From contig DAORPQ010000004.1 in the NCBI GenBank assembly GCA_035442025.1, positions 14,515 through 78,514 on the forward strand: 64,000 bases of DNA, given 5' to 3'. This stretch comes from Candidatus Competibacter sp. (GTDB taxonomy: Bacteria; Pseudomonadota; Gammaproteobacteria; Competibacterales; Competibacteraceae). Made by a program: the position numbers and the translations under genes. Positions 16,365-63,868 of the stretch are shown in pieces; position 1 is the stretch's first letter, and each line of letters starts with the position of its first letter. Under the pieces are notes generated by a model, which was not told the DNA's origin, did no database searches, and saw only the letters and a list, made by a program, of their open reading frames with translations.

Positions 16365-16440
16365 AATAGGATTCCGCCACATTAACCCAGCCCACTCATT
16401 CGGGCTGGCGGGAGCGGTATCCTAACGATAAAATAGACCT

Positions 16441-16456: not shown

Positions 16457-16487
16457 AGCAAAGCGTGGTAAGAAATCCGAGAAAACG

Positions 16488-17762: not shown

Positions 17763-18062
17763 TGGTCAAAAAATGATCGCTCGGCGGCGAATGCGCGGTG
17801 AAGGCTTAGCAAGCTCTTTTAAATACGGCCGCTGGCGCTCGGCCATTTGCCTCTCTCCGCCGACGCCCGACAGGCGTGCGGGCGGCCGCTTTCACGGCAA
17901 TCGGTCAACGCAAGCTTTTTTCTATAAAGAACGCTGGCCGATCAGCAAGTTTTTGTCCAAAATTAATGACTATCGCATCAAGCAAGTAGAATGGCCGGGC
18001 TTTTATCTCTAGCACAGCGGGATAACCAAGCCCGAATTTCAGTCGGCGACGAGGTCAAACAG

Positions 18063-20072: not shown

Positions 20073-20102
20073 TCTTTATCCGGCGATCCCGCCCACCCCG
20101 TT

Positions 20103-20133
20103 AAAAAAGGCGATTCAACGGAATCGCCTTTTT
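20103..20133. terminator. Bidirectional rho-independent terminator between convergent dac-like and gltA genes
   Basis: AAAAAA-GGCGATTC-AACG-GAATCGCC-TTTTT. Perfect 8-bp stem with a U tract on both strands. Confidence 0.85.
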
Positions 20134-20170
20134 CAGCGGCCCCACCAGCCGGCCAGAGTCTCGCCCTCCG

Positions 20171-21457
20171 TTACGCACGCTCGCGCAACAGCGGCACGTC
20201 CCGGCGGGCTTCACCGACGTACAGCTGTCGCGGACGACCGATTTTCTGGTCTTTTTCAGTGATCATCTCGATCCAGTGGCTGATCCAGCCCGCGGCCCGC
20301 GCGATGGCGAACATCACGGTAAACATCTCGACCGGAATCTTCAGCGCGCTGTAGATGATGCCCGAGTAAAAATCCACGTTGGGATACAGCTTGCGCTCGA
20401 TGAAATAGGGATCGCTCAGGGCGATTTCTTCCAAGCGCATGGCCAAATCGAGGCGCGGATCGTGCCCGAAGCTTTCCAAGACTTCATGACAGATATCCTT
20501 GATGATCCGCGCGCGCGGATCGAAATTCTTGTAAACGCGGTGACCGAAGCCCATCAGGCGCACGCCGCTGCTCTTGTCCTTGACCTTGGCGATGAAGCCG
20601 TCGATATTCGATACTTGACCGATTTCATCCAACATGCGAATCACCGCCTCGTTGGCGCCACCGTGCGCCGGACCCCACAGGCAGGCGATGCCCGCGGCGA
20701 TCGCCGCATAAGGGTTGGTGCCGGAAGAACCCACCAGCCGGACTGTCGAGGTGGAGGCATTCTGCTCGTGATCGGCATGGAGGGTGAACAGCACATCCAG
20801 AGCCCGCTCCGCCACCGGGTTTATCTCGTAACGCTTGCCGGGCAAGCTGAACATCATGTACAGCAAATTGCCGGTGTAACTCAGATCGTCGCGCGGATAA
20901 ATCGACGGATCGCCGATGCTGTGTTTGTAGCAGGCGGCGGCGATGGTCGGCATCTTGGCGATCAGCCGGCGGGCGGTCACCATGCGGTCTTCATCGTCCT
21001 GAATGTCGAGCCGATCGTGAAAGAATGCAGAAAGCGAACTGACCACGGCCGTCATCATCGCCATGGGGTGCGCGTCGTAATTGAAGCCGTGGAAAAAGCG
21101 GCGGAGATTTTCCCTAATCCGGTTGTGGCGGGTGATACTGGTCTCGAAAACCTGTTTTTTTTCAGCGTTGGGTAAATCCCCGTAGAGCAGCAAATAACAG
21201 ACTTCCAGAAAATTGCATTTCTGGGCCAGTTGCTCGATCGGATAACCGCGATACAGCAGCTCGCCCCTGTCACCATCCAGGTAAGTAATGGTGCTCTGAC
21301 AACTGGCCGTCGACATGAAACCCGGATCGTAGGTGAAATAGCCGAACTCTTTGGCCAGCCTGCCGATATCGACCACGGGAGAGCCATAAATCGGTTCCAA
21401 AACCGGCATTTGCACCGTTTTTCCAGTGACTTCATCTTTAAAGGTGATCGTTGTCAT
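20171..21457 (-). CDS. gltA: Citrate synthase (type II)
   Basis: [22 protein letters not shown]...; [31 protein letters not shown] at 21457 is preferred to the ORF start at 21535. Confidence 0.95.
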
Positions 21458-21790
21458 AGTTAGTGCCTCAAAGGTCGGCCGGTGAATCGGAGCGAGCCAG
21501 CAGCGCGCGAGCTTGGGCGAACGAACCCACCCCAACGGCTGTTAAGCGCTTTAAACCATTTTTTCAATATGGAGAATCGAGATTTTAACAGAAGCTGTTG
21601 CACTGCAAAATATTCTTGGAGCGGGCCGCATCTAGCCGTCCGGTTACCTGGACCGTCATCAGCTGCGGGCAGCCGCCTTCAAGGCGCTGGGTGTATCCAT
21701 CACCGCCAACCGGCGCTGTTGGATGGGAAGGATCGGCTGGATGCCTCGCCTCCTGGATGAGCCGCACCGAAGGGCCATGGATGTTGCGAT

Positions 21791-21824
21791 GCAGCAATGG
21801 TTGCTGTATATTGCATTGCAGCAA
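21791..21824 (+). promoter_or_regulatory. TGC-rich inverted repeats just upstream of the phasin-like gene (candidate operator)
   Basis: GCAGCAA-tgg-TTGCTG (21791-21806) followed by TTGCATTGCAGCAA (21811-21824). A related palindrome TTGCA-C-TGCAA lies at 21598-21608. RBS AAGGAG is at 21829-21834. Confidence 0.35.
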
Positions 21825-21840
21825 TTTCAAGGAGCGCGCT

Positions 21841-22191
21841 GTGATCGCAACCCCATTCAAACTACTGGAAGCCTCTCGAATGCTGGCGGAACCCTTGGTC
21901 AGGCTCAATCGAGCGGCAGCGGCGAATGCCGAAAACATGGTGGCTTTCCAGATGAGCGCCTTGAACTCCTACCTGACAATCAGCCTCAACCAGCTGAAAG
22001 CCGCCGCCGAAATCACCGATATCGCCAGCTTGCAGGATTTTTGCCAGCGCCAAACGGAGATCGCCAAAACCGTCCAGCAAAAGCTGTTGAGTGACGCCAG
22101 GGCCATCTCGGGCATCGACGGCTGGTTTACGGCCGAAATGGATGATCTCGCGCTAACCGTGCTAGATGAGCTACTACCCAAAGCCGTCTGA
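21841..22191 (+). CDS. Phasin-family (PHA granule-associated) protein, putative
   Basis: GTG at 21841 lies 6 nt after AAGGAG and is in frame with ORF 21598-22191. The 116-aa helical protein (LNRAAAANAENMVAFQMSALNSYLTISLNQLKAAAEITDIASLQDFCQRQTEIAKTVQQKLL) resembles Phasin_2-type proteins by eye only. Confidence 0.55.
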   Translation: MIATPFKLLEASRMLAEPLVRLNRAAAANAENMVAFQMSALNSYLTISLNQLKAAAEITDIASLQDFCQRQTEIAKTVQQKLLSDARAISGIDGWFTAEMDDLALTVLDELLPKAV

Positions 22192-44193: not shown

Positions 44194-47064
44194 TTACGGT
44201 CCTTCCACCAGTGCATACGGCGCCCAAACCTTGGGATCGCGCAGGGAGGGATTTTCGTCCTCGATGAAGAAAAGCTGGGTTTCGCGCAACGCCAGCGCAA
44301 GGTCTTTCGGTTTCGGGCCGTTCAGCCAAGTGCGGTAGAACCGCGCCATGAACTCGCGCGCCGGTCGATCACCTAGCGGCCACAGCGACATCAGGACGTT
44401 GCGTGCGCCAGCGGTGCGTAAAGCCCGGACCAGACCATACACGCCTTCGGCGTAATCCAGCGCGCCCTTGCCGGTATCGCAGGCGGAGAGCGCGACCAGT
44501 TCGGTGTCTTCCAGGTTCAAATCCTGCACTTCCAGGGCGTACAGAATCCCGTCTTCGCCGTCGGGGCCGGCTTTGCCCTGGAGACCCTGATTGGCGCCGG
44601 CCAGAGCGAGGCCGGACAGCACCATCGGCCGATCCACGATCCCGCTCTTTTCGCCGAGATAAAAGCCGTGGGTCGCCAGATGCAGCACGCGCGGCGGCGT
44701 GGCGAGGGTTTTCAAGCGGGATTCGGAGGCGTCCGCGCCGAGCCAGACTTGCGAAGGGATGTTCCAGTAGCTCCAGTACGCATTTTTCACTTCCTCGGCT
44801 TCCTTGCCAGTTTCGGCGAGCGCCTTGAACTGACCGATCTCGTTGGACACCGCGCGCGTGGCGACGGTCAGGTTTTGATCCGTCGGTTTCGGCTGTTGCG
44901 GCGTCGGCTCCTTGGCCGCGCCGAATCCCGCGTAGTCCACCCCGCCCAAGGCCAGCAGACCCTTGGGTTTGTCCAGATCGCGGTCGTAGGCGGCGATCAG
45001 ATGCCGTCCGGTGCTGACTTGGCGCAAGGTCTGGCGTTGAATCCAGTAGCGACCGTCCGGCGTCACCAGTTCGGCGAAGGCCAGCAGGCTGAGGAAACCG
45101 TCCGGCGCGATGTAGAGCGGGTCGTAGCGTTTCAGCTTGTCGTCGAGTTTGCCGAACAGTTGGCTGTACAGAGCGACGGCATCTTCCCGCGCGTGGGTTT
45201 TTTGCAGCTTTTGTGCCCATTCCTGGGTTGCCGCCACCGGACCCAGATCGTGCAACGACAGATCGCCTGCCGCTGGCAGCAGCAACGCCGCCCAATGGGG
45301 TTCGCCAAGTTTTCCAGTTTTGAAGTCACCCGGTCGATACTGGCGCAATTCCAGCAGCGCGCCACGGTCGAGCGGAAGAAAGTGGCGCACGTCGTTCACG
45401 CTCGCGCTGCGCACCTGCAAATGGCGATTGAATTCGCGGCTGATCTGGGCCAGCCGGATTTCCTTGGCTTCCAGTTCGTTCAGTTTCTTGAGCAGCAAAT
45501 CGGCATTCGGTTCCGGCGAATTCGCCAGATGGCTGAGATCGCGCCGGAGCTCGGCGCTTTGCCTTGCCAACTCGCGGATTTCGGTATCCTGCTCGCTGCG
45601 GCGGCGCACCAGCCGCGCCAGGAAAGCCTCTTCCTCGCCCTGAATCTGTTTCCAGCGCAGCATGACCTTGGCGGCGAGATCGAGATACTCCGGCTCAGGA
45701 TGGCTCAGTGTCAAGGTGAGCACCACATCCTGAAAATGCGATTGGCTCGTCAGAAATAGCCGCCGAACTGCCTCCTGCCGGGTATGGCGTAATTCCAAAG
45801 CAGCGCGTTCCAGCAGGCGCGGCTCCATACGTTGCAACAGTTGCAGCGCCTGTTTCGGCTGCCGGAGATTCACCAGCGCAACCGTGTAATTGATCTGAAC
45901 CTGTAAAGTAAGCGGATGCTCTGGGCCGAACACCTTCTCGCTTGCCGCCAGCGCCCGCCGGTGGAGCGGCTCCGCTTCCCCGTAGCGGCCTTGGTTTTGA
46001 TATAACAATGCGAGGCCATTGACGCTGGTCAGGGTATTGGGATGTTCCGGGCCGAGCACCTTCTCGCTCGCCGCCAGCACCCGCCGAAAGAGCGGTTCCG
46101 CCTCCCCGTACCGCCCTTGGGCTCGATATAAAAACGCGAGGTTGTTGATGCTGGTCAGGGTATTTGGATGCTCCGGTCCGAGCATTTTCTCGCGCACCGC
46201 CAGTGCCCGTCGAAAGAGCGGTTCCGCTTCCCTGTAACGCCCTTGGGCTTGATATAAAAACGCGAGGTTGTTGACGCTGGTCAGGGTAAATGGATGCTCC
46301 GAGCCAAGCACCTTCTCACCCGCCGCCAGCGCCCGCTGCAACAGCGGTTCCGCTTCCCTGTAACGGCCTTGGGCTTGATATAACCCCGCGAGATTGTTGA
46401 CGCTACTCAACGTGTCGGAGTGCTCCAAGCCCAGCACCTTTTCGCGCGCCATCAACGCTCGCCGAAAGAGCGGTTCCGCCTCCCCGTACCGCCCTTGCGC
46501 TTGATATAAACCTGCGAGATTGCCGATGCTGGTCAGAGTAAACGGATGCTCCGAGCCAAGCACCTTCTCACTCGCCAATAACGTTCGCTGAAAAAGCGGT
46601 TCCACTTCTCCGTACCGCCCTTGCGCTTGATATAACCCCGCGAGGTTGTTGGCGCTGCTCAGGGTGTCCGGGTGCTCGGTGCCGAGCACCTTCTCGCGCG
46701 CCGCCAGCGCCCGCCGGTAGAGCGGTTCCGCTTCCCCGTAACGCCCTTGGGCTTGATATAAAAACGCGAGGTTGTTGACGCTGGTCAGGGTGTTCGGGTG
46801 TTCGGGGCCGAGTTGCTGCTCGGCGAACCGGTAAGTCTGCTCGGCGGCCATTTCGGCTGTACGATAGTTACCTTTTTGAAGAAGCCCGACAACATGTTCG
46901 TTAAGTGCATCCACAATTTCCTTTTTTTGAGGCACCTTTCCGGTTTTCTGTTGCAGATAGGCAGTAACCGCCTGGACATAGTGTTCACTTTTCGGCTCTT
47001 GGGCATGAGCGACAGCGCCCAAGCCCAGCCATCCCGCTAGCAGCCAACAACCGTATCGTTTCAT
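44194..47064 (-). CDS. Signal-peptide-bearing TPR-repeat / CHAT-domain (caspase-like peptidase) protein
   Basis: ATG at 47064 after AGGAGAG. Signal peptide MKRYGCWLLAGWLGLGAVAHA-QE. Seven near-identical 42-aa TPR units (LGPEHPNTLTSVNNLAFLYQAQGRYGEAEPLFRRALAxxEKV) plus one degenerate unit. Coiled-coil linker. C-terminal CHAT domain with His (VLHLATHGFY) and Cys (LVALSACDTG) dyad contexts. The ORF-track extension to 47724 overlaps the upstream gene. Confidence 0.85.
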   Translation of the reverse strand: MKRYGCWLLAGWLGLGAVAHAQEPKSEHYVQAVTAYLQQKTGKVPQKKEIVDALNEHVVGLLQKGNYRTAEMAAEQTYRFAEQQLGPEHPNTLTSVNNLAFLYQAQGRYGEAEPLYRRALAAREKVLGTEHPDTLSSANNLAGLYQAQGRYGEVEPLFQRTLLASEKVLGSEHPFTLTSIGNLAGLYQAQGRYGEAEPLFRRALMAREKVLGLEHSDTLSSVNNLAGLYQAQGRYREAEPLLQRALAAGEKVLGSEHPFTLTSVNNLAFLYQAQGRYREAEPLFRRALAVREKMLGPEHPNTLTSINNLAFLYRAQGRYGEAEPLFRRVLAASEKVLGPEHPNTLTSVNGLALLYQNQGRYGEAEPLHRRALAASEKVFGPEHPLTLQVQINYTVALVNLRQPKQALQLLQRMEPRLLERAALELRHTRQEAVRRLFLTSQSHFQDVVLTLTLSHPEPEYLDLAAKVMLRWKQIQGEEEAFLARLVRRRSEQDTEIRELARQSAELRRDLSHLANSPEPNADLLLKKLNELEAKEIRLAQISREFNRHLQVRSASVNDVRHFLPLDRGALLELRQYRPGDFKTGKLGEPHWAALLLPAAGDLSLHDLGPVAATQEWAQKLQKTHAREDAVALYSQLFGKLDDKLKRYDPLYIAPDGFLSLLAFAELVTPDGRYWIQRQTLRQVSTGRHLIAAYDRDLDKPKGLLALGGVDYAGFGAAKEPTPQQPKPTDQNLTVATRAVSNEIGQFKALAETGKEAEEVKNAYWSYWNIPSQVWLGADASESRLKTLATPPRVLHLATHGFYLGEKSGIVDRPMVLSGLALAGANQGLQGKAGPDGEDGILYALEVQDLNLEDTELVALSACDTGKGALDYAEGVYGLVRALRTAGARNVLMSLWPLGDRPAREFMARFYRTWLNGPKPKDLALALRETQLFFIEDENPSLRDPKVWAPYALVEGP
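45931..46812 (-). repeat. Seven tandem, in-frame 126-bp repeats encoding the TPR array
   Basis: The landmark CACCTTCTC (or a close variant) recurs at 45931, 46057, 46183, 46309, 46435, 46561 and 46687, with the array ending at 46813. The period is exactly 126 bp. Long identical runs occur between units, e.g. GGTTCCGCTTCCCTGTAACG.CCTTGGGCTTGATATAA. Confidence 0.9.
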
Positions 47065-47078
47065 GGCTCGCTCTCCTT

Positions 47079-47714
47079 TCAGGGCAACACCCGCAGCAGC
47101 TTTACCTCTTTCAGCGGTAGTTTGATCACCGGTAGCCGGGCCGGTTTGCCGTCGGGGGGCAATTTGAACAAGAACAGCGTTTCCTTGTTCTCCAATAGCA
47201 AGCGATAAACGCCGCCGGGTAACTCCCCATACAACTCCTTCAAAGTGGCATCCTCCGGCAGCGGCTCGTTCGGCCAGACGCGCACATGCGGATACGCCAA
47301 AAAACCGTTGTCCTGCTGCGCCTGGTAATACCACCCCGCGCTGACCGCCGCCAGCCACCACGCCAACAGGAACGCCAACAACACCCCGAGTATCTGCAAC
47401 TGCTTGAGCAGCCGAGGCCGTTCCGTCTTGAGTCGGTCCAGCCGGGGCGACAGGCGGGACTCGTAAAAGGCCAGCAGCACGATCCCGAGTCCGTAGGGAA
47501 TCACCAGCCACCACCACGTCTTGAAGACCCAAAAGCCGTACACGAAAAAATACTCGGTGGGAATCTCCAGCGTCAGCAAGCCCAGCTTGAAATGACCGAA
47601 GTAGTGGTAGGCGTAAGTCCAGCCGGTGAAGTACCCCAGAGCGGTGAGAAGCGCCGTGACGGTGGCAAGATCGAGCAGCAATGGGCCGGCGGTTCTCTCG
47701 CTTGGCGCGCTCAT
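47079..47714 (-). CDS. Hypothetical polytopic membrane protein, middle gene of the CHAT operon
   Basis: 211 aa. Three to four hydrophobic helices (LLLDLATVTALLTALGYFTGW; FFVYGFWVFKTWWWLVIPYGLGIVLLAF; ILGVLLAFLLAWWLAAVSAGWYY) then an ~80-aa soluble tail. ATG at 47714 overlaps the upstream stop (ATGA). No recognisable family. Confidence 0.65.
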   Translation of the reverse strand: MSAPSERTAGPLLLDLATVTALLTALGYFTGWTYAYHYFGHFKLGLLTLEIPTEYFFVYGFWVFKTWWWLVIPYGLGIVLLAFYESRLSPRLDRLKTERPRLLKQLQILGVLLAFLLAWWLAAVSAGWYYQAQQDNGFLAYPHVRVWPNEPLPEDATLKELYGELPGGVYRLLLENKETLFLFKLPPDGKPARLPVIKLPLKEVKLLRVLP

Positions 47715-48013
47715 TTGGGGGCATCCTTGGCGGAATCGCCGCGAATATCGCCGCCTCCGAATTTGATCGTCTGCCTGCATGGATTGCAGCGGCCCTGCCC
47801 GGCGGCGATCCGGGTCCAGCCGGTCAGATCATCCAGTTTATAGGGATTGCCGTAATCGTCCCGGCACTGCGCCACTTCGCGGAGGCCCTGCGTTTGCATT
47901 TCGCAGCCATGGCGAAAGTGATCGTCCTTGGTTTCAAGGCAGAAACACCCGTCGGCCGCCACGCTCGCAATTGGAACGGCGAACAGCAGTAAAATGAGGC
48001 GCATAGCATTCAC
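47711..48013 (-). CDS. Small secreted Cys-rich protein, first gene of the CHAT operon
   Basis: 100 aa. GTG at 48013 lies 7 nt after GGAGAG (ATG at 48004 is an alternative). Signal peptide MRLILLLFAVPIASVAA. The mature part has six Cys (CFC...C...C...CNPC). No recognisable family. Confidence 0.6.
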   Translation of the reverse strand: MNAMRLILLLFAVPIASVAADGCFCLETKDDHFRHGCEMQTQGLREVAQCRDDYGNPYKLDDLTGWTRIAAGQGRCNPCRQTIKFGGGDIRGDSAKDAPK

Positions 48014-54762: not shown

Positions 54763-55698
54763 ATGAACGCCTCTGAACGAATAGCGCGGGAAGAACCGGT
54801 CCTGCTGGCGACCGGTCTCGTCAAACAGTTCGCCGGCCGCCGCGTCGTCGATGGCGTGGGCTTGAGTTGCCGGGCCGGTCAGGTGCTGGGCCTGCTGGGC
54901 GCCAACGGGGCCGGCAAGACCACCACCTTGCGGATGTGCTACGGCTTTCTTCAACCCGACACCGGCACGATTCGGATAGCGGGCATCGACCGCCGCGCCG
55001 ATCCCGAGGCGGCGGCCCGGCGCGTGGGCGTTTGCACCCAGGACGACACCTTCGACAACGATTTCACGGTGCGCGGCAACCTGGAGCAGGTCAGCCGTTA
55101 TTTCCGGCTCCGACCGACCGCGCTGAAGGGACGGATCGGCGAGCTACTCGAACGCTTCGGGCTGGACCGCTACGCCAACGACAAACCCGAAATCCTCTCC
55201 GGCGGCTACCGACGTCGGCTCATGCTCGCCCGCGCGCTGGTCCACCAACCGCGGTTGCTGTTTCTCGACGAGCCGACCACGGGGTTGGACCCGCAAGCCC
55301 GGCTGGAAGTCTGGGAATTGATCGACACCCTGCGGCGTGAAGGCTTGGGCATCGTTCTGACCACCCATTACATGGAGGAAGCCGAGCGGCTGTCCGACGA
55401 GCTGCTGGTGTTGCGCGAAGGCCGGACGGTGGCCGCCGGCCAATCGCCGACCGTGCTGGGGGATTTGGTCGGCGAGCACATGCTGGTGTTGGACGCCCGC
55501 GATCCGGCCGCCCCGGCGGTCCGTGAGTGGGCCCGCCAAGCCGGTTTGTCGGAACCCAGCCGGGTACTTTCCAGCTTGCATCTGGCGCTGGATGGACCGG
55601 CCCTCGCGCAGTTCAGCGCCCGCTTCGGCGAACTGCGCTTCGAGGTCCGCCCGCCCACGCTGGACGATCTGTTCCTGAAACTGGCCGAGAAACCATGA
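54763..55698 (+). CDS. ABC transporter ATP-binding protein (ABC-2/NodI/DrrA-like exporter class)
   Basis: 311 aa. Walker A GANGAGKTT, signature LSGGYRRRL, Walker B LLFLDEPTTGLD. Confidence 0.9.
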   Translation: MNASERIAREEPVLLATGLVKQFAGRRVVDGVGLSCRAGQVLGLLGANGAGKTTTLRMCYGFLQPDTGTIRIAGIDRRADPEAAARRVGVCTQDDTFDNDFTVRGNLEQVSRYFRLRPTALKGRIGELLERFGLDRYANDKPEILSGGYRRRLMLARALVHQPRLLFLDEPTTGLDPQARLEVWELIDTLRREGLGIVLTTHYMEEAERLSDELLVLREGRTVAAGQSPTVLGDLVGEHMLVLDARDPAAPAVREWARQAGLSEPSRVLSSLHLALDGPALAQFSARFGELRFEVRPPTLDDLFLKLAEKP

Positions 55699-56510
55699 CG
55701 CTCCATTACCGCGCCGCTTTCCAGTGGCAGAGTCGCGCCGTTTTGGGCCGACACCTGACCGTGTACCGCCGTAACTGGTATACCGCCGCGCTGCCGCCGT
55801 TGTTCGAACCCATCATCCTGCTGCTGGCGTTCGGGGTGGGGTTGGGCGGTTTCATTCCCGAATTCGCCTGGCGCGGGCGGCCCGTACCCTATCTGGCCTA
55901 CCTGGCGCCCGGCATGTTGGCCTACACCGCGTTCATGACCGCCTTCTTTCAAGCGTTGTTCGCGGCCTACATCCGAATGCATTACCAGAAAACCTGGGAA
56001 GGGCAACTCATCACCCAGGTGCGGCTGGAGCATGTGGTTTGGGGCGAGGCGCTGTGGGCCGCCACCCTGGGTACTTTCTATGCCCTGATCGTGATTCTGG
56101 TGCTGGCGGGCTTCTCGCTGACCGGCTGGCTGCACCTGCACTGGTTCAGCGCGCTGCTGGTGCTGCCGTTGCTGTTTCTCGCCGCGCTGGCCTTCGCTTC
56201 GTTGGGGCTCTTGTTCACGGCGCTGGTACCCAGCATCGATCACATGAACATCCCGTTCTTTCTGGTGATCATGCCGCTCGGTTTCGCCAGCAGCACCTAC
56301 TTTCCCCTGGAAGGCGACTCGCCCTGGATTCGGCTTTGGTTGACCCTGAACCCCTTGCACCATCTGGCGGAAGGGGTCCGTTTCCTGCTGCTGACCGGCG
56401 AGCTAAACCAACATTTGGCGGCGGCCTGCGGCCTGTTTTTACTGATGATCTCGATCCTTATCCCCATCGACGAGCGGCTGTTACGCAAGCGGGTGTTGGG
56501 TGAGGGTTGA
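55695..56510 (+). CDS. ABC-2 type transporter permease (NodJ/YadH-like)
   Basis: ATG at 55695 overlaps the ATPase stop (ATGA). 271 aa with six hydrophobic segments. The ORF-track N-terminal extension lies inside the ATPase gene. Confidence 0.85.
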   Translation: MTLHYRAAFQWQSRAVLGRHLTVYRRNWYTAALPPLFEPIILLLAFGVGLGGFIPEFAWRGRPVPYLAYLAPGMLAYTAFMTAFFQALFAAYIRMHYQKTWEGQLITQVRLEHVVWGEALWAATLGTFYALIVILVLAGFSLTGWLHLHWFSALLVLPLLFLAALAFASLGLLFTALVPSIDHMNIPFFLVIMPLGFASSTYFPLEGDSPWIRLWLTLNPLHHLAEGVRFLLLTGELNQHLAAACGLFLLMISILIPIDERLLRKRVLGEG

Positions 56511-56571
56511 CGGTTTTTCGCAGCATCACCTTGGAAATGCGTGCCTCGCAACCATTATAAGAATTTTAATC

Positions 56572-58761
56572 ATGAGACTTTTTTTATTTCGTACCGCATC
56601 CGCGCTCGCTATTGCCGCTTTATCCGCCAGCCTTGCGCCAAGCCATGCGGCGCCTGCTGTCGACGTTACCGTCGACCTTCGCGCCGGTCCCACCAACACG
56701 TTCATTCCCGCCGTCGCGCTGGGCGCTGGGGTGGACGGCCACTCGCGCAGCGACAGCGCGGCCATCTACCAGCCGGAAACCCTGCGCGCGATGCGCTCGG
56801 CGGGGTTGGGAGCGCTCAGCTACCGGCTGCGCACCGAACTGGCGATCGAGGCTTGGCACTGGAATCCGCGCGGGCGCTGGAGCGACCGTCCGCACGCCCG
56901 AGGCTACTGGACCTCCGACGACCGGCCGAGCGCCCCGATCCCGACCTCCTACGGCTATCGTTTGCCGCGCCGTGGCAACTCCGTCGATCAGGCGGAAAAC
57001 GACGGTTACTCCCGGCTCGCCGATGGCGATTCCGCCAGCTTTTGGAAAAGCAATCCTTACCTGGATCGCCGTTACACCGGCGAAGACAACCGCCGCCACC
57101 CCCAATGGTTGATTGCCGACTTGGGAAGTCGCACGCCGGTAAACGGTATTCGCATCATTTGGGGCAACCCTTATGCGGTGCGCTATGCGGTGCAGTACTG
57201 GGACGGCGAAGACCCGCAAGATCCGGACGAGTATCCCGACGGTCGCTGGCAACCCTTTCCCGAAGGCGCGGTAGCGCAGGGCCACGGCGGTAATGTCACG
57301 CTGCGCTTGAGCCAGTCCCCAATCGCCGTGCGTTTCCTGCGAGTTTTGTTGGAAGATGCCTCCCACACCGCGCCGCCGAGCGCCAAAGACCCGCGCGATG
57401 CGCTCGGCTACGCGGTGCGGGAAATTTATCTCGGAACGCTGGATGCCGCCGGCCGACTCCGCGACGCGGTGCGCCACGGTAAGACCCGCAAAACCCAGAC
57501 CCGGTTTTTCGTCTCCTCCACCGATCCCTGGCACCGCGCCAGCGATCTGGATAACGGGGTGGAACAGCCCGGCATCGACCGGTTGTTCGCCAGTGGCCTG
57601 ACTCGCGGTTTGCCGGTGCTGATGGCAGTAGGCGCGCTCTACGACACGCCGGACAACGCCGCTGCCCTGCTGCGCTATCTGCGGCGACGCGGCTATCCCC
57701 TGCGCGGCATCGAGATCGGCGAGGAGCCTGACGGTCAGTACGTTGCGCCGGAGGACTACGGCGCGCTCTACCTGCAAACGGCGGACGCGCTGCGCGCCAT
57801 AGATTCCACCATCACCCTGGGCGGTCCTTCGTTCCAATCGCTTTGGGATCAACCGATGATGGCGTGGTCGGGAACCGCAATCGCGCCCGATCGCCCTTGG
57901 CTCGCGCGCTTTCTGGCCTATCTCGACGAAAGGAACCGTAAAGCGGCCCTGGGCTTTCTGTCCTTCGAGTGGTATCCCTTCGATGATGTTTGCGAGCCGC
58001 CCGCCGCTCAATTACAACAGGCGGCAGCGCTGCTGGCCTCAGGCCTGGCGGAGCTTTACCGCCAGGGGTTGGCGCGCGACATCCCGCTCTATATCACCGA
58101 ATACGGCTATTCCGCGTTCTCTGCCCAAGCGGAAGTTGATCTGACCGGCGCCTTGTTCAACGCCGATGCCGTGGGAACCTTCCTGACCCTCGGCGGCGCG
58201 ACCGCCTATTTGTACGGCTACGAACCCAGCCCGATTTATCGGGGACCGGACTGTAACACCTGGGGTAACAACACTTTGTTTTTAGCGGACGAGCGCCGCC
58301 GAATTTTGGCGCGCACCGCAACTTACCACGCCGCAACCTTACTGAACCGACAATGGGTAGGGGACCCGACCCAGGCCCACGAGGTCTATCCGGCCACACT
58401 GGATAACGCTATTTCAGATGACTCATCGCCGTTGGGCGTTTATGCTGTAAGGCGTCCCGATCGACGATGGGCAATTTTGGCGGTCAACAAGGACCCGCAA
58501 CGAGACTGGACTATCGCGTTGCATTTCGTGGGGCCCGCCTCCGATACCGTCGTGCCTTTGCTCGGTCCCGCCGATCTTTATCAGTTTTCCGCCGAACAAT
58601 ACCGCTGGCAAGCGAACGGCGCGCGCGGGCGACCGGCGCGCAGTCGGCCGCCCGAGCACACCCGCCTGTCCGACCGCGCTGCGGTGAGCGTGCGGTTGCC
58701 ACCCTGGTCGCTGACGGTGGTTCAAAGCGCGGGACCGCGATCTCGGGCGACCGCGCCGTGA
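56572..58761 (+). CDS. Secreted discoidin (F5/8 type C)-domain protein with a clan GH-A-like TIM-barrel glycosidase fold, putative
   Basis: Signal peptide MRLFLFRTASALAIAALSASLAPSHA. Discoidin-like segment (SFWKSNPY...HPQWLIADLGSRTPVNGIRIIWGNPYAVRYAVQYW...VRFLRV). Candidate acid/base IGEEPDG and nucleophile YITEYGYS, as in clan GH-A enzymes. Family is not assignable by eye. Confidence 0.6.
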   Translation: MRLFLFRTASALAIAALSASLAPSHAAPAVDVTVDLRAGPTNTFIPAVALGAGVDGHSRSDSAAIYQPETLRAMRSAGLGALSYRLRTELAIEAWHWNPRGRWSDRPHARGYWTSDDRPSAPIPTSYGYRLPRRGNSVDQAENDGYSRLADGDSASFWKSNPYLDRRYTGEDNRRHPQWLIADLGSRTPVNGIRIIWGNPYAVRYAVQYWDGEDPQDPDEYPDGRWQPFPEGAVAQGHGGNVTLRLSQSPIAVRFLRVLLEDASHTAPPSAKDPRDALGYAVREIYLGTLDAAGRLRDAVRHGKTRKTQTRFFVSSTDPWHRASDLDNGVEQPGIDRLFASGLTRGLPVLMAVGALYDTPDNAAALLRYLRRRGYPLRGIEIGEEPDGQYVAPEDYGALYLQTADALRAIDSTITLGGPSFQSLWDQPMMAWSGTAIAPDRPWLARFLAYLDERNRKAALGFLSFEWYPFDDVCEPPAAQLQQAAALLASGLAELYRQGLARDIPLYITEYGYSAFSAQAEVDLTGALFNADAVGTFLTLGGATAYLYGYEPSPIYRGPDCNTWGNNTLFLADERRRILARTATYHAATLLNRQWVGDPTQAHEVYPATLDNAISDDSSPLGVYAVRRPDRRWAILAVNKDPQRDWTIALHFVGPASDTVVPLLGPADLYQFSAEQYRWQANGARGRPARSRPPEHTRLSDRAAVSVRLPPWSLTVVQSAGPRSRATAP

Positions 58762-58825
58762 TGCATCGCAGCGCTCCAACAGCGACCGCAACCTGACGGA
58801 CGGCCTTCGACCGCAATCTATCGCC

Positions 58826-61800
58826 ATGTCCCAGCCTTTGCTCAAACCGGAAGATCCGGCCGGTTCCGATGCGCCGTTAGCGCCAGCGGAAAGCGGCGCT
58901 GTCATGGTCAAGCCAGTCTTCTTCGATCCCGCGCGCAAGCGCTGGCCACGCCTGCGCGCGGGGATGATGCTGGCCGCACTCGGCCTGACGGTGCTGTTGG
59001 GGGGACTCTTGGCCAGCATCCTGGCCAGTCCGGTGCTGCCCGCGCTCAACCTGCCGGGCGCCAGTTTTTTGCCGCTAGGGGCCCACGCCGTTCCCGCCCT
59101 GCCCGCGCTAGCTCCCGAGCGCGCGCTCACCCGCCGCGAACGCGCCCTGCATAAAACCAAGCTGAAACTGGCTCGCGAGCGCGAGCGCGATTTGCGACAA
59201 CTGCTGGCGACCCAGATTCACAAAGCGGGTCCCATCGCGGACAAACCGCAACTCGCCATCGGCTTTTTCGTGAACTGGGACGATTCGAGCATGACTTCGC
59301 TCAAGCAGAATCTCGGCAGCCTGGATATGGTGATCGCCGAGTGGCTGCACCTTGCGGCCGAGGATGGCTCGTTGCGAGAAGACGATCCCGTCCGTCAGTC
59401 GCAGGCCACGAGCTACATCCGCACCCGCCATCCCGATTTGTCGATCGTCCCGCTGGTCAACAACTGGAACGGTCACGACTGGGAAGGGGCAAAACTGGGG
59501 CGGGTGCTGGCCGACCAGCCGGCGCGGACGCGCGTAATCGGGCAGTTGCTCGCCTATGTGGAACGCCACAATTTCGCCGGCGTCAGCATCGACTTCGAAA
59601 ACATCCCCGCCAAGGCTCAACCCGACTTCCAGCGCTTCATGGCCGAACTCTACACCGTGTTCCATCCGAAGAATTTATCGGTCTCGGTGAACGTGCCGGC
59701 CAGCGACCCAGCCTTCGACTACCGCAAATTGGCCGGCAGCGCCGATCACCTGATCCTGATGGCCTACGACGAGCACTGGTCCACCGGCGCGCCCGGCCCC
59801 ATCGCCAGCCTGCCTTGGTTCGCCAAAGTGCTGCGCCAGCGCCAGCATGACGTACCCGCCGCCAAAACGATCGTCGCCATCGGCAATTACGCTTACGATT
59901 GGGAAAACGGCCACCCCGCCGAGGAGCGGACCTTCGAAGAAGCGGTGCTGGTCGCCAAGGAATCGGAAGGCGCTATTCATCTCGACCCCGTTTCGCTCAA
60001 TCCCACCTTCGATTACGCCGACGACAACGATCGCATCCATCATGTCTGGATGTTGGACGCTGTTACGGCTTTCAATCAGTTGGCGGTCGTGGGTTCAATA
60101 CGACCGCGCGGGGTCGCGCTCTGGCGTCTGGGCAGCGAAGATCCCGCGCTCTGGCGGGTGTTTGGCAAAACCGGGCCGATGGACGCGGCGCGCGCCGCCG
60201 AATTGGGCGAAATCCATTTCGGCTACGGTCTGGATTACGAGGGGAAAGGCGAGGTCCTCGAAATCACCGCCCGCCCGCAGCCGGGGGCTCGGACCCTCAC
60301 TTTCGATCCGAAACGCAACTTGATTACCGCCGAACGCTACACGCAATTTCCGTCGCCCTACATGATTACCCGGCACGGCGGCATACCGCGCAAGGTCGCC
60401 TTGACTTTCGACGATGGCCCCGATTCACGCTTTACGCCCCAGATTCTCGATGAGCTCCATAAAGCCGGCGTTCCGGCCACCTTCTTCATCATCGGCGTCA
60501 ACGGCGAGCTGAATCCAGATTTGTTGCGACGCGAGGTCGATGAAGGCCATGAGATCGGCAATCACACCTTCACCCATCCCAACATTTCCAGCATTTCCTC
60601 GGGCCAGTTTCAGCTCGAACTGTCCGCGACCCAACGTCTGCTGGCCAGCGCGGTGGGCCGCCATTCGTTGCTGTTCCGCCCGCCTTACGCGGTCGACGCC
60701 GAACCCGAAACCATCGACCAGCTCCGCCCCATCGAGTGGGCGTCCGAACAAGGCTATCTGGTGGTGGGGATGCAGATCGACCCCGACGATTGGCAGCGGC
60801 CCGGCGTGGAGGAGATCGTCCGGCGCACCGTGGCCGAGGCGGAACGCGGCGAAGGCAACATGATCCTGCTGCACGACGCCGGCGGCGACCGCAGCCAAAC
60901 CGTGGAAGCCATTCCCAAAATCGTCGCGGCGTTGCGCGAGCGGGGTTTCCAGTTCGTGACCGTCTCCGATTTGCTGGGCCGGAGCCGCGACGAGGTCATG
61001 CCGCCGGTGCCGCCCGACAGCCGGTGGCAAACTTGGTGGGACGGGGCGGCGTTCGGCGTGTTCAACTGGTCGGCGGCGCTCATCCATTGGCTGTTTTTGC
61101 TGGGGATCGTGCTCGGCATCGCCCGCTTGCTGTTGATCGGCGTGCTCGCCCTGTACCAGCGCTGGCGCGGGCGGCACGCGGTCTTCGACCCGACCTATAC
61201 GCCTTCGGTGGCGGTGATCGTGCCCGCCTACAACGAAGAAAAAGTCATCGCCCAGACCGTTGTTTCCCTGTTGGCCAGCCAGCATCCCCAGCACTTCGAA
61301 ATTATCGTGATCGACGACGGTTCCGCCGACGCCACCTATCGGGTAGCGCGTGACACCTTCGCGAACGATCTGCGGGTGCGGGTGTTCACCAAACCCAACG
61401 GCGGCAAACCGGCCGCGCTCAACTTCGGTCTGGCGCAAACCCGCGCGGAAATCGTCGTGGCCTTGGACGCCGACACCGTGTTCACCCGCGACACCATCAG
61501 CAAGTTGGTCCGGCATTTTGCCGATCCGGGCATTGGCGCGGTGGCCGGCAACGCCAAGGTGGGCAACCGGGTCAACCTGCTCACCCGTTGGCAGGCGCTG
61601 GAATATATCACCAGCCAGAACCTGGACCGGCGCGCTTTCGATGTGCTCAACTGTATTACGGTGGTCCCCGGCGCGGTGGGGGCTTGGCGGCGCGAGCTGA
61701 TCGCACGGGCCGGTGGGTTCACTCATCTCACGCTGGCGGAGGACGCCGATCTCACCATGCAGATCCGCAAGCTGGGCTACACCATCGCGTATGAAGACGA

Positions 61801-62326
61801 AGCGGTGGCCCTGACCGAGGCGCCCGATACCGTGGGCGGGTTCATCCGCCAACGTTACCGGTGGATGTACGGCACCATGCAGGCGGCCTGGAAGCACCGC
61901 GATGTGCTGTTCCGGCCGCGTTACGGCGCGCTGGGTTTTGTGGCCCTGCCCAATATCTTTATCTTCCAGGTCTTTTTCCCGTTGATTTCACCGGTGATGG
62001 ATCTGCTGCTCATCGGGTCGCTGGCCAGCGCGGCCTTCAATTACGGGCAGCATCCCGCCGAGTTTTCAGCGGATGCGCTCTGGCGCGTCCTGTTCTACTA
62101 CGCCCTGTTCGTGACGGTGGACTATCTGGCCGCCGTGTTGGCTTTCGCGCTGGAGCGCCGGGAAAGTTGGAGCCTGTTGGTCTGGCTGTTCTGGCAGCGC
62201 TTTTTCTATCGCCAGCTGATGTACTACGTCGCCATCAAGAGCACGCTGACCTCCCTGCGAGGCGTCCTGGTCGGTTGGGGCAAGTTGGAGCGCAAAGCGA
62301 CGGTGACGGTGCGGGAGGCCACTTAA
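58826..62326 (+). CDS. Membrane-anchored trifunctional-looking protein: GH18-like domain + CE4 polysaccharide deacetylase + processive family-2 glycosyltransferase
   Basis: 1166 aa. TM about aa 46-70. GH18-like about aa 142-445 (AGVSIDFE). CE4 about aa 520-715 (TFDDGP, HEIGNHTFTHP, FRPPY, ILLHD). TM(s) about aa 740-777. GT2 about aa 793-1025 (VPAYNEE, DDGSAD, DADT, AEDADL, QRYRW). C-terminal TM bundle. Confidence 0.85.
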   Translation: MSQPLLKPEDPAGSDAPLAPAESGAVMVKPVFFDPARKRWPRLRAGMMLAALGLTVLLGGLLASILASPVLPALNLPGASFLPLGAHAVPALPALAPERALTRRERALHKTKLKLARERERDLRQLLATQIHKAGPIADKPQLAIGFFVNWDDSSMTSLKQNLGSLDMVIAEWLHLAAEDGSLREDDPVRQSQATSYIRTRHPDLSIVPLVNNWNGHDWEGAKLGRVLADQPARTRVIGQLLAYVERHNFAGVSIDFENIPAKAQPDFQRFMAELYTVFHPKNLSVSVNVPASDPAFDYRKLAGSADHLILMAYDEHWSTGAPGPIASLPWFAKVLRQRQHDVPAAKTIVAIGNYAYDWENGHPAEERTFEEAVLVAKESEGAIHLDPVSLNPTFDYADDNDRIHHVWMLDAVTAFNQLAVVGSIRPRGVALWRLGSEDPALWRVFGKTGPMDAARAAELGEIHFGYGLDYEGKGEVLEITARPQPGARTLTFDPKRNLITAERYTQFPSPYMITRHGGIPRKVALTFDDGPDSRFTPQILDELHKAGVPATFFIIGVNGELNPDLLRREVDEGHEIGNHTFTHPNISSISSGQFQLELSATQRLLASAVGRHSLLFRPPYAVDAEPETIDQLRPIEWASEQGYLVVGMQIDPDDWQRPGVEEIVRRTVAEAERGEGNMILLHDAGGDRSQTVEAIPKIVAALRERGFQFVTVSDLLGRSRDEVMPPVPPDSRWQTWWDGAAFGVFNWSAALIHWLFLLGIVLGIARLLLIGVLALYQRWRGRHAVFDPTYTPSVAVIVPAYNEEKVIAQTVVSLLASQHPQHFEIIVIDDGSADATYRVARDTFANDLRVRVFTKPNGGKPAALNFGLAQTRAEIVVALDADTVFTRDTISKLVRHFADPGIGAVAGNAKVGNRVNLLTRWQALEYITSQNLDRRAFDVLNCITVVPGAVGAWRRELIARAGGFTHLTLAEDADLTMQIRKLGYTIAYEDEAVALTEAPDTVGGFIRQRYRWMYGTMQAAWKHRDVLFRPRYGALGFVALPNIFIFQVFFPLISPVMDLLLIGSLASAAFNYGQHPAEFSADALWRVLFYYALFVTVDYLAAVLAFALERRESWSLLVWLFWQRFFYRQLMYYVAIKSTLTSLRGVLVGWGKLERKATVTVREAT

Positions 62327-62910
62327 GCCGATGATTCCCACCAACGGGTGTAATTGACACTCAGCGCGGCCACACCGTCCTCGACCGTCGAGAAATCAAA
62401 AAAAGGCAGGTCGTATCGCTTGCATTCCTTTCGATACCATCTGCTTAATTTTATCTGTTCTTGCAGAAAAGAATGTGCTGCCTTCGCCGATTTTTCCGCC
62501 AGCCAGTGGACTTTTTTCTTTCTGATCATCTTGAAGCGCGCTTCCACTTTCAGGCGCGGATACCCGCAATACACCGGGTAGAAGCGACCGTCGGACGCTT
62601 CTTTCAGCTTCCTCGCCTTCGAGGGATCGATCCAGCCGCCTTCGACAATACAAAACGCATCCGCGGATAAGAGCCGCGCCACAACCTCCAGGGCGATCTT
62701 CTGGGTGACTTTTTCCAAAGCGCCCTGATCGTCGACGACTTTCCCAAGAATATCGTAAAAATTATCCAGCTCGACGACCGCGCGCCCATCTCTGGCCGCC
62801 AGCATTCTCGCGGCTGTCGACTTCCCGGACGCGCTCGCCCCACCGATGAAATAAATCGAACCGCGCGATGTCGCAGCTTTCTCGCCTGGGACTTTTTCAT
62901 TTTCGGACAC
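62323..62910 (-). CDS. P-loop NTPase/kinase-like protein
   Basis: 195 aa. Walker A GGASASGKST near the N-terminus. The gene is visibly lower in GC than its neighbours. Its stop codon overlaps the stop of the convergent 58826-62326 gene in the palindrome TTAA. Confidence 0.6.
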   Translation of the reverse strand: MSENEKVPGEKAATSRGSIYFIGGASASGKSTAARMLAARDGRAVVELDNFYDILGKVVDDQGALEKVTQKIALEVVARLLSADAFCIVEGGWIDPSKARKLKEASDGRFYPVYCGYPRLKVEARFKMIRKKKVHWLAEKSAKAAHSFLQEQIKLSRWYRKECKRYDLPFFDFSTVEDGVAALSVNYTRWWESSA

Positions 62911-63127
62911 GGTCTTTAGGGCTCCGTCTGCTGGCTGCTCGCAGGTTTTGGCCGACCCATTGCAACCCGAGATTCGCCGGCGAACCGACTTCCATCGGAT
63001 TCATGTGCGGCCTTGGCAATGCGAGCGCTCATGCCCGTTAGCTCAATTGAGATAGGCGGCGGCAGTATCCGGGGTGGAGCACACGACGAGCGCGACGCCC
63101 TGCGGGCAGCGCCGGCGAACCATCCCT

Positions 63128-63868
63128 TCAAACGTGCTCGTGCAGCCCGCACTCGCGCTTGAGGCCGAAAAACCGCGTGTCTTCCGGGCTCATCCCATCG
63201 ACCAGCCGGCGGGTGGTGTGGACATCGCCGATGGAGACGTAGCCCTGCTCCCACAACGGGTGATAGGGCAAGCCGTATCGGGTGAGATAACGGTAAACGT
63301 CGCGGTCGGTCCAATCGATCAGGGGATGAACCTTGCAGCGGCCGTTGCGCCACAGCAGCACGTCGAGATGCTGGCGGCTTTTCGCCTGCTGACGCCGCAG
63401 GCCGGAAATCCAGGCCGCCGCTCCCAAATCCTTGAGCGCCCGCTGCATCGGCTCGACCTTGTTCAGCCGGTTGTAGCGCTCGATGCCGTCCAAACCCTGT
63501 TCCCACAGCTTGCCGTAGCGGGCTTCCTGCCAGGCGGGCCCGTGTGGGGCGCGGTAGATGTGCAGGTTCAACGCCAGACGTTCGGCAAGCTCGTCGATAA
63601 AGCGGTAGGTTTCGGGGAACAGGTAGCCGGTATCGATCAGCACGACTGGAATATCCGCTTGCTGGGCGACCACCATGTGCAGACAAACCGCCGACTGAGC
63701 CCCGAAGCTGGAGGTCAACACCACGCGGCCCGGAAAGCTTTCCAAGGTCCAGCCGACCCGGCGCTCGGCGCTTGCCGAATCCAGCTCGCGGTTCATGGTT
63801 TCGAGATCGAACCATGGCTCGATGCCGTCCTCCAGTAATCCAGGTTGTACCACTGCCTGAGTCATCAC
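63128..63868 (-). CDS. cysH: Phosphoadenylyl-sulfate (PAPS) reductase, thioredoxin-dependent
   Basis: 246 aa. [24 protein letters not shown]-terminal KRECGLHE motif. No CC...CxxC Fe-S cluster signature is seen. Confidence 0.9.

Follow-up and report, generated by a model that had tools for sequence, protein, structure and literature searches.

A predicted MatB-type poly-N-acetylglucosamine synthase with an added GH18 domain, and its clan GH-A hydrolase neighbour, in Candidatus Competibacter

Introduction

Synthase-dependent cationic polysaccharides such as poly-N-acetylglucosamine (PNAG), Pel and the fungal galactosaminogalactan are central to the cohesion of biofilms. The MatAB system of Streptomyces is the closest described counterpart of the locus discussed in this paper, which lies in a stretch of 64,000 nucleotides from Candidatus Competibacter sp. 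(assembly GCA_035442025.1, contig DAORPQ010000004.1, positions 14,515 to 78,514; this whole stretch is called the window below). In MatB (SCO2962), an extracellular CE4 domain, a membrane helix and an intracellular GT2 domain are joined in one polypeptide (PMC5972031). MatAB makes PNAG, as seen from staining with the monoclonal antibody F598, sensitivity to dispersin B and periodate, and a negative calcofluor result (PMC5972031; PNAG from MatAB is also reported in PMC4391728). The system has no PgaA or PgaD, and its second gene, directly upstream of the synthase, encodes MatA, described as a membrane protein without known domains (PMC5972031, PMC4391728). In Escherichia coli pgaABCD, a GT2 enzyme makes poly-N-acetylglucosamine (poly-GlcNAc) and a periplasmic protein, PgaB, processes it with a CE4 domain and a (beta/alpha)8 hydrolase domain of family GH153, which structurally resembles GH18 and GH20 (PMC5933820). 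Rhizobial nodABCIJ has a NodB-type CE4 enzyme, which is cytoplasmic, a NodC-type GT2 enzyme and a NodIJ-type ABC-2 (ATP-binding cassette) transporter in one gene row. Secreted endo-type glycosidases next to a synthase are represented by PslG (GH39), BcsZ and PelA, which are periplasmic hydrolases dedicated to synthase-type exopolysaccharide systems. In addition, Bundalovic-Torma et al. noted CE4-glycosyltransferase fusions in Gram-negative operons that lack pgaA and pgaD, with the product unconfirmed (PMC7112194).

The locus in the window resembles several of these systems at once. It was first described in a reading made from the letters of the DNA and its open reading frames (ORFs) only, here called the sequence-only reading, as a polysaccharide locus that combines a NodI/NodJ-like exporter, a secreted glycosidase-like protein and a NodB+NodC-like fusion. 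In our reading, the locus encodes instead a predicted poly-GlcNAc synthase of the MatB type that carries an additional GH18 domain, and its partner is a hydrolase from a clan GH-A family not described before. Probably only these two genes, and not all four, make up the functional unit, which would be a compact exopolysaccharide system of the synthase-dependent kind represented by actinobacterial MatB. The resemblance to NodIJ plus NodBC stems from a juxtaposition of genes and not from a conserved system. The best named relatives of the locus proteins are in Candidatus Competibacter and Competibacteraceae, and since thousands of full-length homologues exist, the features described here cannot be due to chance.

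The tri-domain synthase

The largest gene of the locus (58826..62326, forward strand, as are all features of the locus given below unless stated otherwise) encodes a membrane protein of 1166 residues in which Pfam recognises three enzyme domains. The first is a GH18 domain of the SleL/YaaH/YdhD type at residues 145-435 (59258..60130), with a PF00704 score of 70.5 bits against a cut-off of 29.6. It is followed by a CE4 (NodB-homology) de-N-acetylase domain at residues 522-720 (60389..60985; 110.6 bits in Pfam, from residue 522) and by the core of a processive GT2 synthase at residues 793-1030 (61202..61915). The GT2 match in Pfam has 115 bits and runs over residues 793-1061, and NCBIfam agrees on the domain. 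The protein ends in membrane helices at about residues 1036-1144 (61931..62257), which appear both in a hydropathy scan and as long helices in the structural model. The sequence-only reading had thus been right about the CE4 and GT2 domains, both of which are present with intact motifs, but it overlooked the GH18 domain, and what it called a NodB+NodC-like fusion is actually a fusion of three enzymes. More than 2000 homologues of this protein exist, and the full architecture is found in all 106 of the best listed.

The motifs were compared in an alignment of 19 tri-domain relatives and one bifunctional relative, taken from Pseudomonadota, Verrucomicrobiota, Armatimonadota, Deinococcota, Bacillota, Bacteroidota and Actinomycetota. 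Each of the five CE4 motifs (TFDD, HTFTH, RPPY, DxxDW and LHD) is intact in 20 of the 20 sequences; in the window protein they read TFD529D530, H580-x3-H584, R618-P-P-Y, D-x-x-D655-W and L-H683-D, so that the metal triad (Asp-His-His) and the catalytic residues (Asp and His) expected of a CE4 enzyme are present. The GT2 motifs DDGS, DxD, ED and QRxRW are invariant or nearly so among the aligned relatives. In the window protein (D830D831GS, D881-A-D883, E972D973 and Q1009-R-Y-R-W1013) these, together with the flanking membrane helices, are the marks of the processive membrane GT2 class (D, DxD, ED, QxxRW). The GH18 domain is somewhat reduced: in its DxxDxDxE motif the first two Asp are replaced by Ala and Ser (A..S), while D256-x-E258 and M-x-Y314-D315 are kept. 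Of 19 diverse tri-domain homologues, 17 retain the D-x-E and two have lost the Glu.

In the AlphaFold model the GH18 and CE4 domains are confident, and the GT2 and channel part has low scores (predicted local distance difference test, pLDDT, 30-60). Structure searches with Foldseek match the GH18 domain to the chitinase 5jh8 (TM-score 0.85, root-mean-square deviation 2.4) and also to 4wiw, SleL, YaaH and YdhD, and the CE4 domain to the peptidoglycan deacetylase Bc1960 (TM-score 0.82-0.84). The hydropathy scan places a first transmembrane (TM) helix at residues 48-66, a second at 756-774 and further helices from residue 1036. The loop of 689 residues between the first two helices holds both GH18 and CE4. 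The predicted topology is therefore an N-terminus inside, a TM helix, GH18 and CE4 outside, a second TM helix, GT2 inside and then the C-terminal TM helices. A match to BcsA spans residues 765-1117, and the C-terminal helices would form the polymer channel.

The relatives of the two extracytoplasmic domains raise the question of whether GH18 and CE4 act on peptidoglycan, in local wall remodelling or de-acetylation, and not on the product of the GT2 domain. The closest solved or curated relatives of the GH18 domain are the spore-cortex lytic proteins SleL, YaaH and YdhD, and those of the CE4 domain are the peptidoglycan N-acetylglucosamine (GlcNAc) deacetylases Bc1960, PgdA and PdaB, as this explanation would have it. 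Both domains are nevertheless fused to a processive synthase and would sit just outside its channel, which points to the nascent polymer as their substrate; the same CE4-GT2 arrangement in MatB yields PNAG that can be de-acetylated, and the fusion is conserved in monoderms and diderms alike. A peptidoglycan substrate is for these reasons highly improbable.

Between GH18 and CE4, at residues 469-518 (about 60230-60380), the model contains a small five-stranded beta domain that corresponds to no Pfam family. The accessory genes found 3' of the tri-domain gene differ between lineages. In Sulfitobacter (L098, 10000-12537) a DUF3131 gene follows with a 4-bp overlap, and the GH18 domain there is without the catalytic Glu. 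In Sphingobium (L096, 10156-13501) the tri-domain gene is followed by genes for a VirJ-like protein and an MprF-like lysyl-phosphatidylglycerol synthase.

Placement of the synthase and its likely product

The domains were compared by BLASTP with reference proteins from annotated records. For the GT2 domain, the highest identity (46%) is to a bifunctional deacetylase/glycosyltransferase from Streptomyces viridifaciens that is MatB-like, followed by E. coli PgaC and NodC (31% each) and BcsA (26%); in bits, the MatB-like protein scores 288 and PgaC 129. The CE4 domain gives a similar picture, with 49% identity to the MatB-like protein, 39% to NodB and 21% to PgaB (E 0.002). A tblastn comparison with plasmid records gave the same ranking for GT2, with HasA last. 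Among the NCBIfam models, PgaC_IcaA (TIGR03937) scores highest for the GT2 part, with 168 bits against a cut-off of 422.3, and the Nod models are also below their cut-offs (NodC 103 against 550, NodB 131 against 240).

In a neighbour-joining tree of GT2 cores, the tri-domain proteins group with the actinobacterial bifunctional CE4-GT2 proteins in a single clade (100 of 100 bootstraps), separate from PgaC, from NodC/HasA and from BcsA. NodC and HasA form a clade of their own, again in 100 of 100 bootstraps. Within the larger clade the tri-domain proteins are not monophyletic (3/100), and the sister link of the clade to PgaC is found in 44 of 100 bootstraps. Architecture and GT2 grouping thus place the window protein with the MatB type, and PNAG is its predicted product. 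Differences from Streptomyces MatAB are the extra N-terminal GH18 domain (about 450 residues), the host, which is a diderm gammaproteobacterium, and the partner gene, whose product here is a secreted CBM32/GH-A hydrolase where MatA is a membrane protein. The 255-residue protein encoded upstream of the S. viridifaciens homologue showed no similarity to either window protein.

Compared with pgaABCD, the GH18 and CE4 domains can be seen as a functional analogue of PgaB, with a GH18 domain in place of GH153, the domain order reversed, and the processing domains fused to the inner-membrane synthase. By the identities given above, the GT2 and CE4 domains do not qualify as PgaC and PgaB, and BLAST gives no significant match between any of the four locus proteins and PgaA or PgaD of E. 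coli. The likeness to nodABCIJ consists of the NodB-type, NodC-type and NodIJ-type proteins in one gene row, at 31-42% identity. All of the Nod-type proteins in the window are, however, under the cut-offs of the Nod models, the CE4 domain is predicted to be extracytoplasmic where NodB is cytoplasmic, the GT2 domain groups apart from NodC and HasA, and the ABC pair is syntenic with the synthase only in one narrow clade. No NodA ORF was found in or beside the locus. The earlier statement that the layout is unlike those of pga, ica and nod is in agreement with these comparisons.

Since the nearest GT2 relatives are of the GlcNAc type and the CE4 residues are intact, synthesis and de-N-acetylation of poly-GlcNAc is the best reading. 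The sequence-only reading had suggested a polymer of this kind that is made, partly de-acetylated and trimmed, and this is a reasonable interpretation: the nearest named GT2 relatives all work with UDP-GlcNAc, the GT2 domain does not cluster with synthases for other sugars, and the metal-binding and catalytic residues of CE4 are in place.

The same machinery could instead make a beta-1,4-linked polymer similar to chitin or chitosan, and not beta-1,6-linked PNAG. The GH18 fold, with its D-x-E and M-x-Y-D motifs, is typical of enzymes that cleave beta-1,4-linked GlcNAc, the CE4 domain resembles peptidoglycan and chitin deacetylases and NodB most closely and has only 21% identity to PgaB, the CBM32 module of the neighbouring hydrolase (see below) is nearest to chitosan-binding modules, and the grouping with PgaC is weak. 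On the other hand, the CE4 domain of MatB is likewise chitin-like, and yet the MatAB product is PNAG by calcofluor, dispersin B, periodate and antibody (PMC5972031). The scores of the NCBIfam models also favour PgaC_IcaA over NodC for the GT2 part. A GH18-fold domain that acts on a beta-1,6 polymer is plausible because the GH153 domain of PgaB is itself similar to GH18 and GH20 (PMC5933820). A beta-1,4 product is a possibility to be taken seriously, although it is the less likely of the two linkages.

On a plasmid of Kocuria rosea (L105, 3668-6973), a bifunctional CE4-GT2 gene is convergent with a separate gene for a 328-residue 'chitinase' with a D-x-D-x-E motif. This 'chitinase' was considered as a split form of the fusion and rejected, as it has no detectable similarity to the GH18 domain in the window.

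The secreted hydrolase

The gene directly upstream of the synthase (56572..58761) encodes a secreted hydrolase of 729 residues that consists of a signal peptide, a discoidin/CBM32 module, a clan GH-A (GH39-like) barrel and a C-terminal beta-sandwich. Its start is most likely the ATG at 56572 and not the GTG at 56500 with which the ORF begins. From this ATG, the protein starts with a Sec-type signal peptide of 26 residues (56572..56649), MRLFLFRTASALAIAALSASLAPSHA, read from the sequence, with cleavage predicted after SHA and before AP; it is the sole hydrophobic segment in the protein. The F5/8 type C (discoidin, CBM32-like) module at about residues 145-262 (57004..57357) is the only part of the hydrolase that Pfam recognises, and the match to PF00754 is marginal yet above threshold (29.6 against 28.2 bits). 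In the model the corresponding beta-sandwich is at residues 178-298. The best solved relatives of the module, found with a profile of the family, are the chitosan-binding DD1/DD2 modules of a Paenibacillus glucanase/chitosanase (E 4e-6). The description of this gene product as a signal-peptide protein with a discoidin domain was therefore correct.

No Pfam family covers the catalytic (beta/alpha)8 barrel at about residues 305-600 (57484..58371), and the protein has no match to any GH family in Pfam. The AlphaFold model, built with 30 homologues (pLDDT 84.7), shows this barrel together with an N/C-terminal beta-sandwich and the inserted discoidin sandwich. With Foldseek the model matches structures of GH79, GH51, GH44, GH30 and GH39 at E-values of 1e-16 to 1e-13, and the family profile reaches GH39 xylosidase structures only at E 1e-3. 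The invariant Glu residues are in the places where a clan GH-A enzyme would have them: E384 and E385 follow strand beta-4 and E510 ends strand beta-7, with E385 as the predicted acid/base and E510 as the predicted nucleophile. The motifs G-E384-E385-P and T-E-Y-G-Y-S (with E510) are invariant in the homologues compared (30 of 30 and 81 of 81). E510, in ITEYG, aligns with the Glu in the ITEYN of the GH39 enzyme XynB1, which is E278 when counted on the printed alignment and which we take to be the nucleophile. The clan GH-A-like contexts of the catalytic Glu that had been seen in the sequence are thus borne out by the structure matches and by the invariance of these residues. Because there is no Pfam GH39 match, the hydrolase is outside GH39 by sequence, and its motif is also E-E-P and not N-E-P. 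As judged from the model, its barrel is that of a retaining clan GH-A enzyme, with a distant likeness to GH39. In being a secreted glycosidase of this fold next to a synthase it is similar to PslG, BcsZ and PelA, and it differs from them in the inserted CBM32 module, in the Glu-Glu-Pro motif and in belonging to a small, isolated family.

The 4554 homologues of the hydrolase are named only 'discoidin domain-containing protein', and an exhaustive HMMER search among 1.84 billion representatives yields only 715 at E <= 1e-3. The family is small and isolated in sequence, and is a candidate for a new GH family. In three longer proteins, P0169 (1271 residues), P0361 (1349 residues) and P0398 (1473 residues), the hydrolase catalytic domain is found at the C-terminus.

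GEEP, present without exception in the 81 homologues, takes the place of the Asn-Glu-Pro of clan GH-A. A similar replacement is known from GlmA, a GH35 exo-beta-D-glucosaminidase of clan GH-A from Thermococcus, in which a carboxylate replaces the Asn before the acid/base Glu; the change from Asn-Glu to Asp-Glu binds the C2-NH3+ of glucosamine (GlcN) and excludes GlcNAc (PMC6566704). As this analogous change gives a contact with GlcN in GlmA, the GEEP motif should favour de-acetylated GlcN at subsite -1 of the hydrolase; the chitosan-binding relatives of the CBM32 module are in keeping with such a preference. The two enzymes differ in that GlmA has Asp-Glu and the window hydrolase Glu-Glu, and they belong to different GH families with different architectures.

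Linkage between hydrolase and synthase

The linkage of the two genes was followed in a scan with one genome per species, in which 80 hydrolase loci were kept. The synthase adjoins the hydrolase in 24 of these; when only the 35 loci with flanks of at least 5 kb on either side are counted, it does so in 15. The pairing occurs in three phyla (Pseudomonadota, Verrucomicrobiota and Armatimonadota) and in four gene arrangements: tandem in both orders, divergent and convergent. Competibacteraceae and Accumulibacter have the two genes in tandem, and Verrucomicrobiota have them convergent; one Chthonomonadia locus shows the reverse tandem order, and one proteobacterial locus a divergent pair. When the ORFs of the 80 loci were clustered, all neighbours other than the synthase proved to be lineage-specific or shadow ORFs. 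The recurrence of the pairing across phyla and arrangements argues for a functional link, which is facultative.

The facultative nature of the link leaves some room for the view that the secreted protein is a general or catabolic glycosidase without a functional tie to the synthase, next to which it would lie by accident or secondarily. Such a view would account for the 20 of 35 well-flanked loci without the synthase and for the neighbours of the hydrolase in Gemmatimonadota, Acidobacteriota and Armatimonadota, which include sulfatase-domain proteins, major facilitator superfamily (MFS) proteins and AI-2E transporters. It would also account for nine synthase loci outside the hydrolase-anchored set (four homologues of 62-77% identity and five from cultured organisms), none of which has the hydrolase. 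It does not fit well with an adjacency in 24 of 80 loci, which we estimate (this was not computed) to be far above chance for two single-copy genes, nor with the recurrence of the pair in different phyla and orders. The invariant GEEP motif and the chitosan-type CBM32 module, moreover, fit the predicted de-acetylated product. We regard an unlinked glycosidase as unlikely.

The hydrolase is found without the synthase in many loci of Acidobacteriota, Gemmatimonadota and Armatimonadota. In Gemmatimonadaceae (L060, L045, L054, L067 and L068) such hydrolase genes have an upstream gene for a sulfatase-domain membrane protein of 660 residues, as well as MFS and DUF1634 genes. In Verrucomicrobiota (L066, L069, L072, L077 and L080) a GH26-like protein is encoded upstream of hydrolase genes that have no synthase beside them.

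The ABC-2 transporter genes

Upstream of the hydrolase gene are genes for an ABC transporter ATPase of 311 residues (54763..55698; NodI/DrrA-like) and an ABC-2 permease of 271 residues (55695..56510; NodJ-like), both of which we judge to be outside the conserved system. Their identity as an ABC-2 pair, as originally given, is supported by Pfam (ABC_tran, 111 bits; ABC2_membrane, 64 bits). The best NCBIfam model for the ATPase is NodI, at 233 bits against a cut-off of 521, and for the permease the NodJ subfamily model, at 121 against 206.65. By BLASTP, the ATPase is 42% identical to Sinorhizobium NodI and the permease 32% identical to NodJ.

It was suggested earlier that all four genes form one system, in which the product of the GT2 and CE4 domains would be chito-oligomers or PNAG oligomers, exported by the NodIJ-like pump. 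The arrangement of the genes speaks for this. The four ORFs are on the same strand with exactly the limits that were described before (54763-62326), the ATPase stop and the permease start overlap in an ATGA at 55695-55698, and a gap of 61 bp separates the permease gene from the hydrolase gene, and one of 64 bp the hydrolase gene from the synthase gene; the short or overlapping junctions are thus as first reported. No terminator turned up in the gene junctions in a consensus scan. The NodI and NodJ models are the best curated ones for the pair, with the identities to real NodI and NodJ just given, and at least three assemblies of one species-level clade, at about 90% DNA identity, share the identical four-gene layout. 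The relative with the 94%-identical permease has the same glcDEF, ABC, hydrolase, synthase and AAA_33 layout, and its locus is collinear with the window over 15 kb at 90% DNA identity.

Outside this clade, the association is not found. There is no ABC-2 permease within 10 kb in the 80 hydrolase loci, 24 of which have the synthase too. There is also none beside a Competibacter synthase of 85% identity, in whose locus the gene before the hydrolase is trpE, none beside the four synthase homologues of 62-77% identity, and none in the five synthase loci from cultured organisms that were inspected. The ABC pair in turn is found in other company: permease homologues of 90%, 86%, 84%, 74% and 70% identity are in five mutually different contexts, namely with an extracytoplasmic function (ECF) sigma factor and an amino-acid transporter, with an H+-pyrophosphatase and an AI-2E protein, with a pilin gene, with an ECF sigma factor and an aldolase, and with a methyltransferase and a P-type ATPase. 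Two of these are other Competibacteraceae lineages, with 86-90% identity. Because its neighbours differ in every context elsewhere, the ABC pair is an autonomous unit, and its position beside the synthase module is a recent, clade-specific juxtaposition. The NodI and NodJ cut-offs, equivalog and subfamily, are all missed. The topology of the synthase points in the same direction. As GH18 and CE4 are predicted to be outside the membrane, the synthase must translocate its own product, which has already crossed the membrane when it meets CE4, and a pump for cytoplasmic oligosaccharides is then unnecessary; the membrane helices and the QxxRW motif are those of a self-translocating processive enzyme. 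The exporter as a part of the system, which the synteny in relatives does not support, is hence the element of the sequence-only reading that we reject, and a single system of four genes is very unlikely. Missing synteny between the ABC pair and the GT2 gene in relatives is an outcome that the sequence-only reading had itself named as a refutation.

Among the matches listed, permease homologues are 64-94% identical and come from several phyla, and the pair is unusually well conserved, from Gammaproteobacteria to Planctomycetota and Verrucomicrobiota. The ATPase and permease genes always overlap by 4 bp in the loci that were read (L086, L088, L107, L108 and L109), and the neighbours differ each time.

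Proposed mechanism

In the two-gene system that we consider probable, the GT2 domain would polymerise UDP-GlcNAc into a beta-linked poly-GlcNAc and thread the chain through its own membrane channel, with beta-1,6 PNAG as the most likely product by homology with MatB. The tethered CE4 domain would strip some of the acetyl groups from the emerging chain, making it cationic and adhesive. The tethered GH18 domain would work by substrate-assisted catalysis and hence require GlcNAc at subsite -1, and the soluble hydrolase, with its Glu-Glu-Pro, should favour GlcN at this subsite. Together, the GH18 domain and the soluble hydrolase would cut, size or release the polymer, much as is the case for PgaB-GH153, PelA, PslG and BcsZ.

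A number of points weigh against this interpretation. The linkage of the polymer is not readable from the sequence, and beta-1,4-linked GlcNAc is the usual substrate both of GH18 enzymes and of the closest CE4 relatives. The sister link of the GT2 clade to PgaC is weak, the Streptomyces comparator is a MatB-like homologue and not SCO2962 itself, and the GT2 part of the synthase model is of low confidence. The equivalence of E384 with the canonical Asn, and with it the comparison with GlmA, is by motif position and not by superposition. More than half of the well-flanked hydrolase loci are without a synthase, and all nine further synthase loci are without the hydrolase. No outer-membrane export component was found, although the host is a diderm. 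The ABC pair is co-directional with the hydrolase gene, 61 bp from it and without a recognisable terminator; because the terminator scan was empty, the two could be co-transcribed. The scan for a consensus promoter between the two was empty as well, and the DNA ahead of the hydrolase gene shows no conservation in relatives. Finally, the tri-domain members and the hydrolase family are known from sequences and models alone.

A more far-reaching version of the two-gene interpretation is also conceivable, and we offer it tentatively. The tri-domain protein would be a self-sufficient, single-polypeptide factory in which synthesis, de-acetylation and sizing of a cationic poly-GlcNAc are combined, served in some lineages by a dedicated hydrolase that founds a new GH family and owes its GlcN specificity to its Glu-Glu-Pro active site, and the GlcNAc-requiring and GlcN-requiring activities would jointly read the acetylation pattern of the polymer. 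The lineages meant here are the floc- and granule-forming Competibacter and Accumulibacter, and some Verrucomicrobiota and Armatimonadota.

Relevance

Competibacter and Accumulibacter dominate the granules and flocs that biological wastewater treatment depends on. The tri-domain synthase is widespread; it was found in the sampled relatives from Competibacteraceae and Accumulibacter, and in cultured Bacillus mycoides, Deinococcus, Sphingobium, Prevotella and Sulfitobacter. As a route to partly de-acetylated poly-GlcNAc, it would be compact and easily transplantable. The hydrolase, as a candidate new GH family, has a predicted specificity determinant that can be addressed by point mutation, and it may be a matrix-degrading enzyme.

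Neighbouring genes and other features of the window

On the 5' side the locus is bordered by divergent glcDEF-like genes, and on the 3' side by a convergent gene for a P-loop, kinase-like protein that Pfam assigns to AAA_33 (62323..62910, reverse strand), which overlaps the synthase stop by 4 bp. L083-L085, three assemblies of the same clade, likewise have the AAA_33 gene after the synthase, as does C. denitrificans (61% identity), and the gene is a conserved neighbour within Competibacter. In the relative with 90% DNA identity, a GGDEF diguanylate-cyclase gene comes after the AAA_33 gene (L083, 15169-16214); it is missing from the window (62859-63128). An ORF on the forward strand of the window at 63074-63838 has no Pfam match. 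In Deinococcus sp. KNUC1210, a gene for a sensor diguanylate cyclase is directly 3' of the tri-domain gene. These neighbouring cyclases in relatives may hint at control by cyclic di-GMP. A riboswitch, for example for cyclic di-GMP, was rejected, as a search with Rfam over the whole window finds only one tRNA.

The remainder of the window consists of housekeeping genes. At 44194-47724 (reverse strand) it encodes a protein of 1176 residues with many tetratricopeptide repeats and a C-terminal CHAT (caspase-like) domain. The G+C content is 0.54-0.57 at 16001-22000, around the tRNA at 16294-16364 (reverse strand), compared with 0.62-0.66 elsewhere; the ORFs scanned in this stretch of low G+C are housekeeping genes (trmB-like, DD-carboxypeptidase and citrate synthase).

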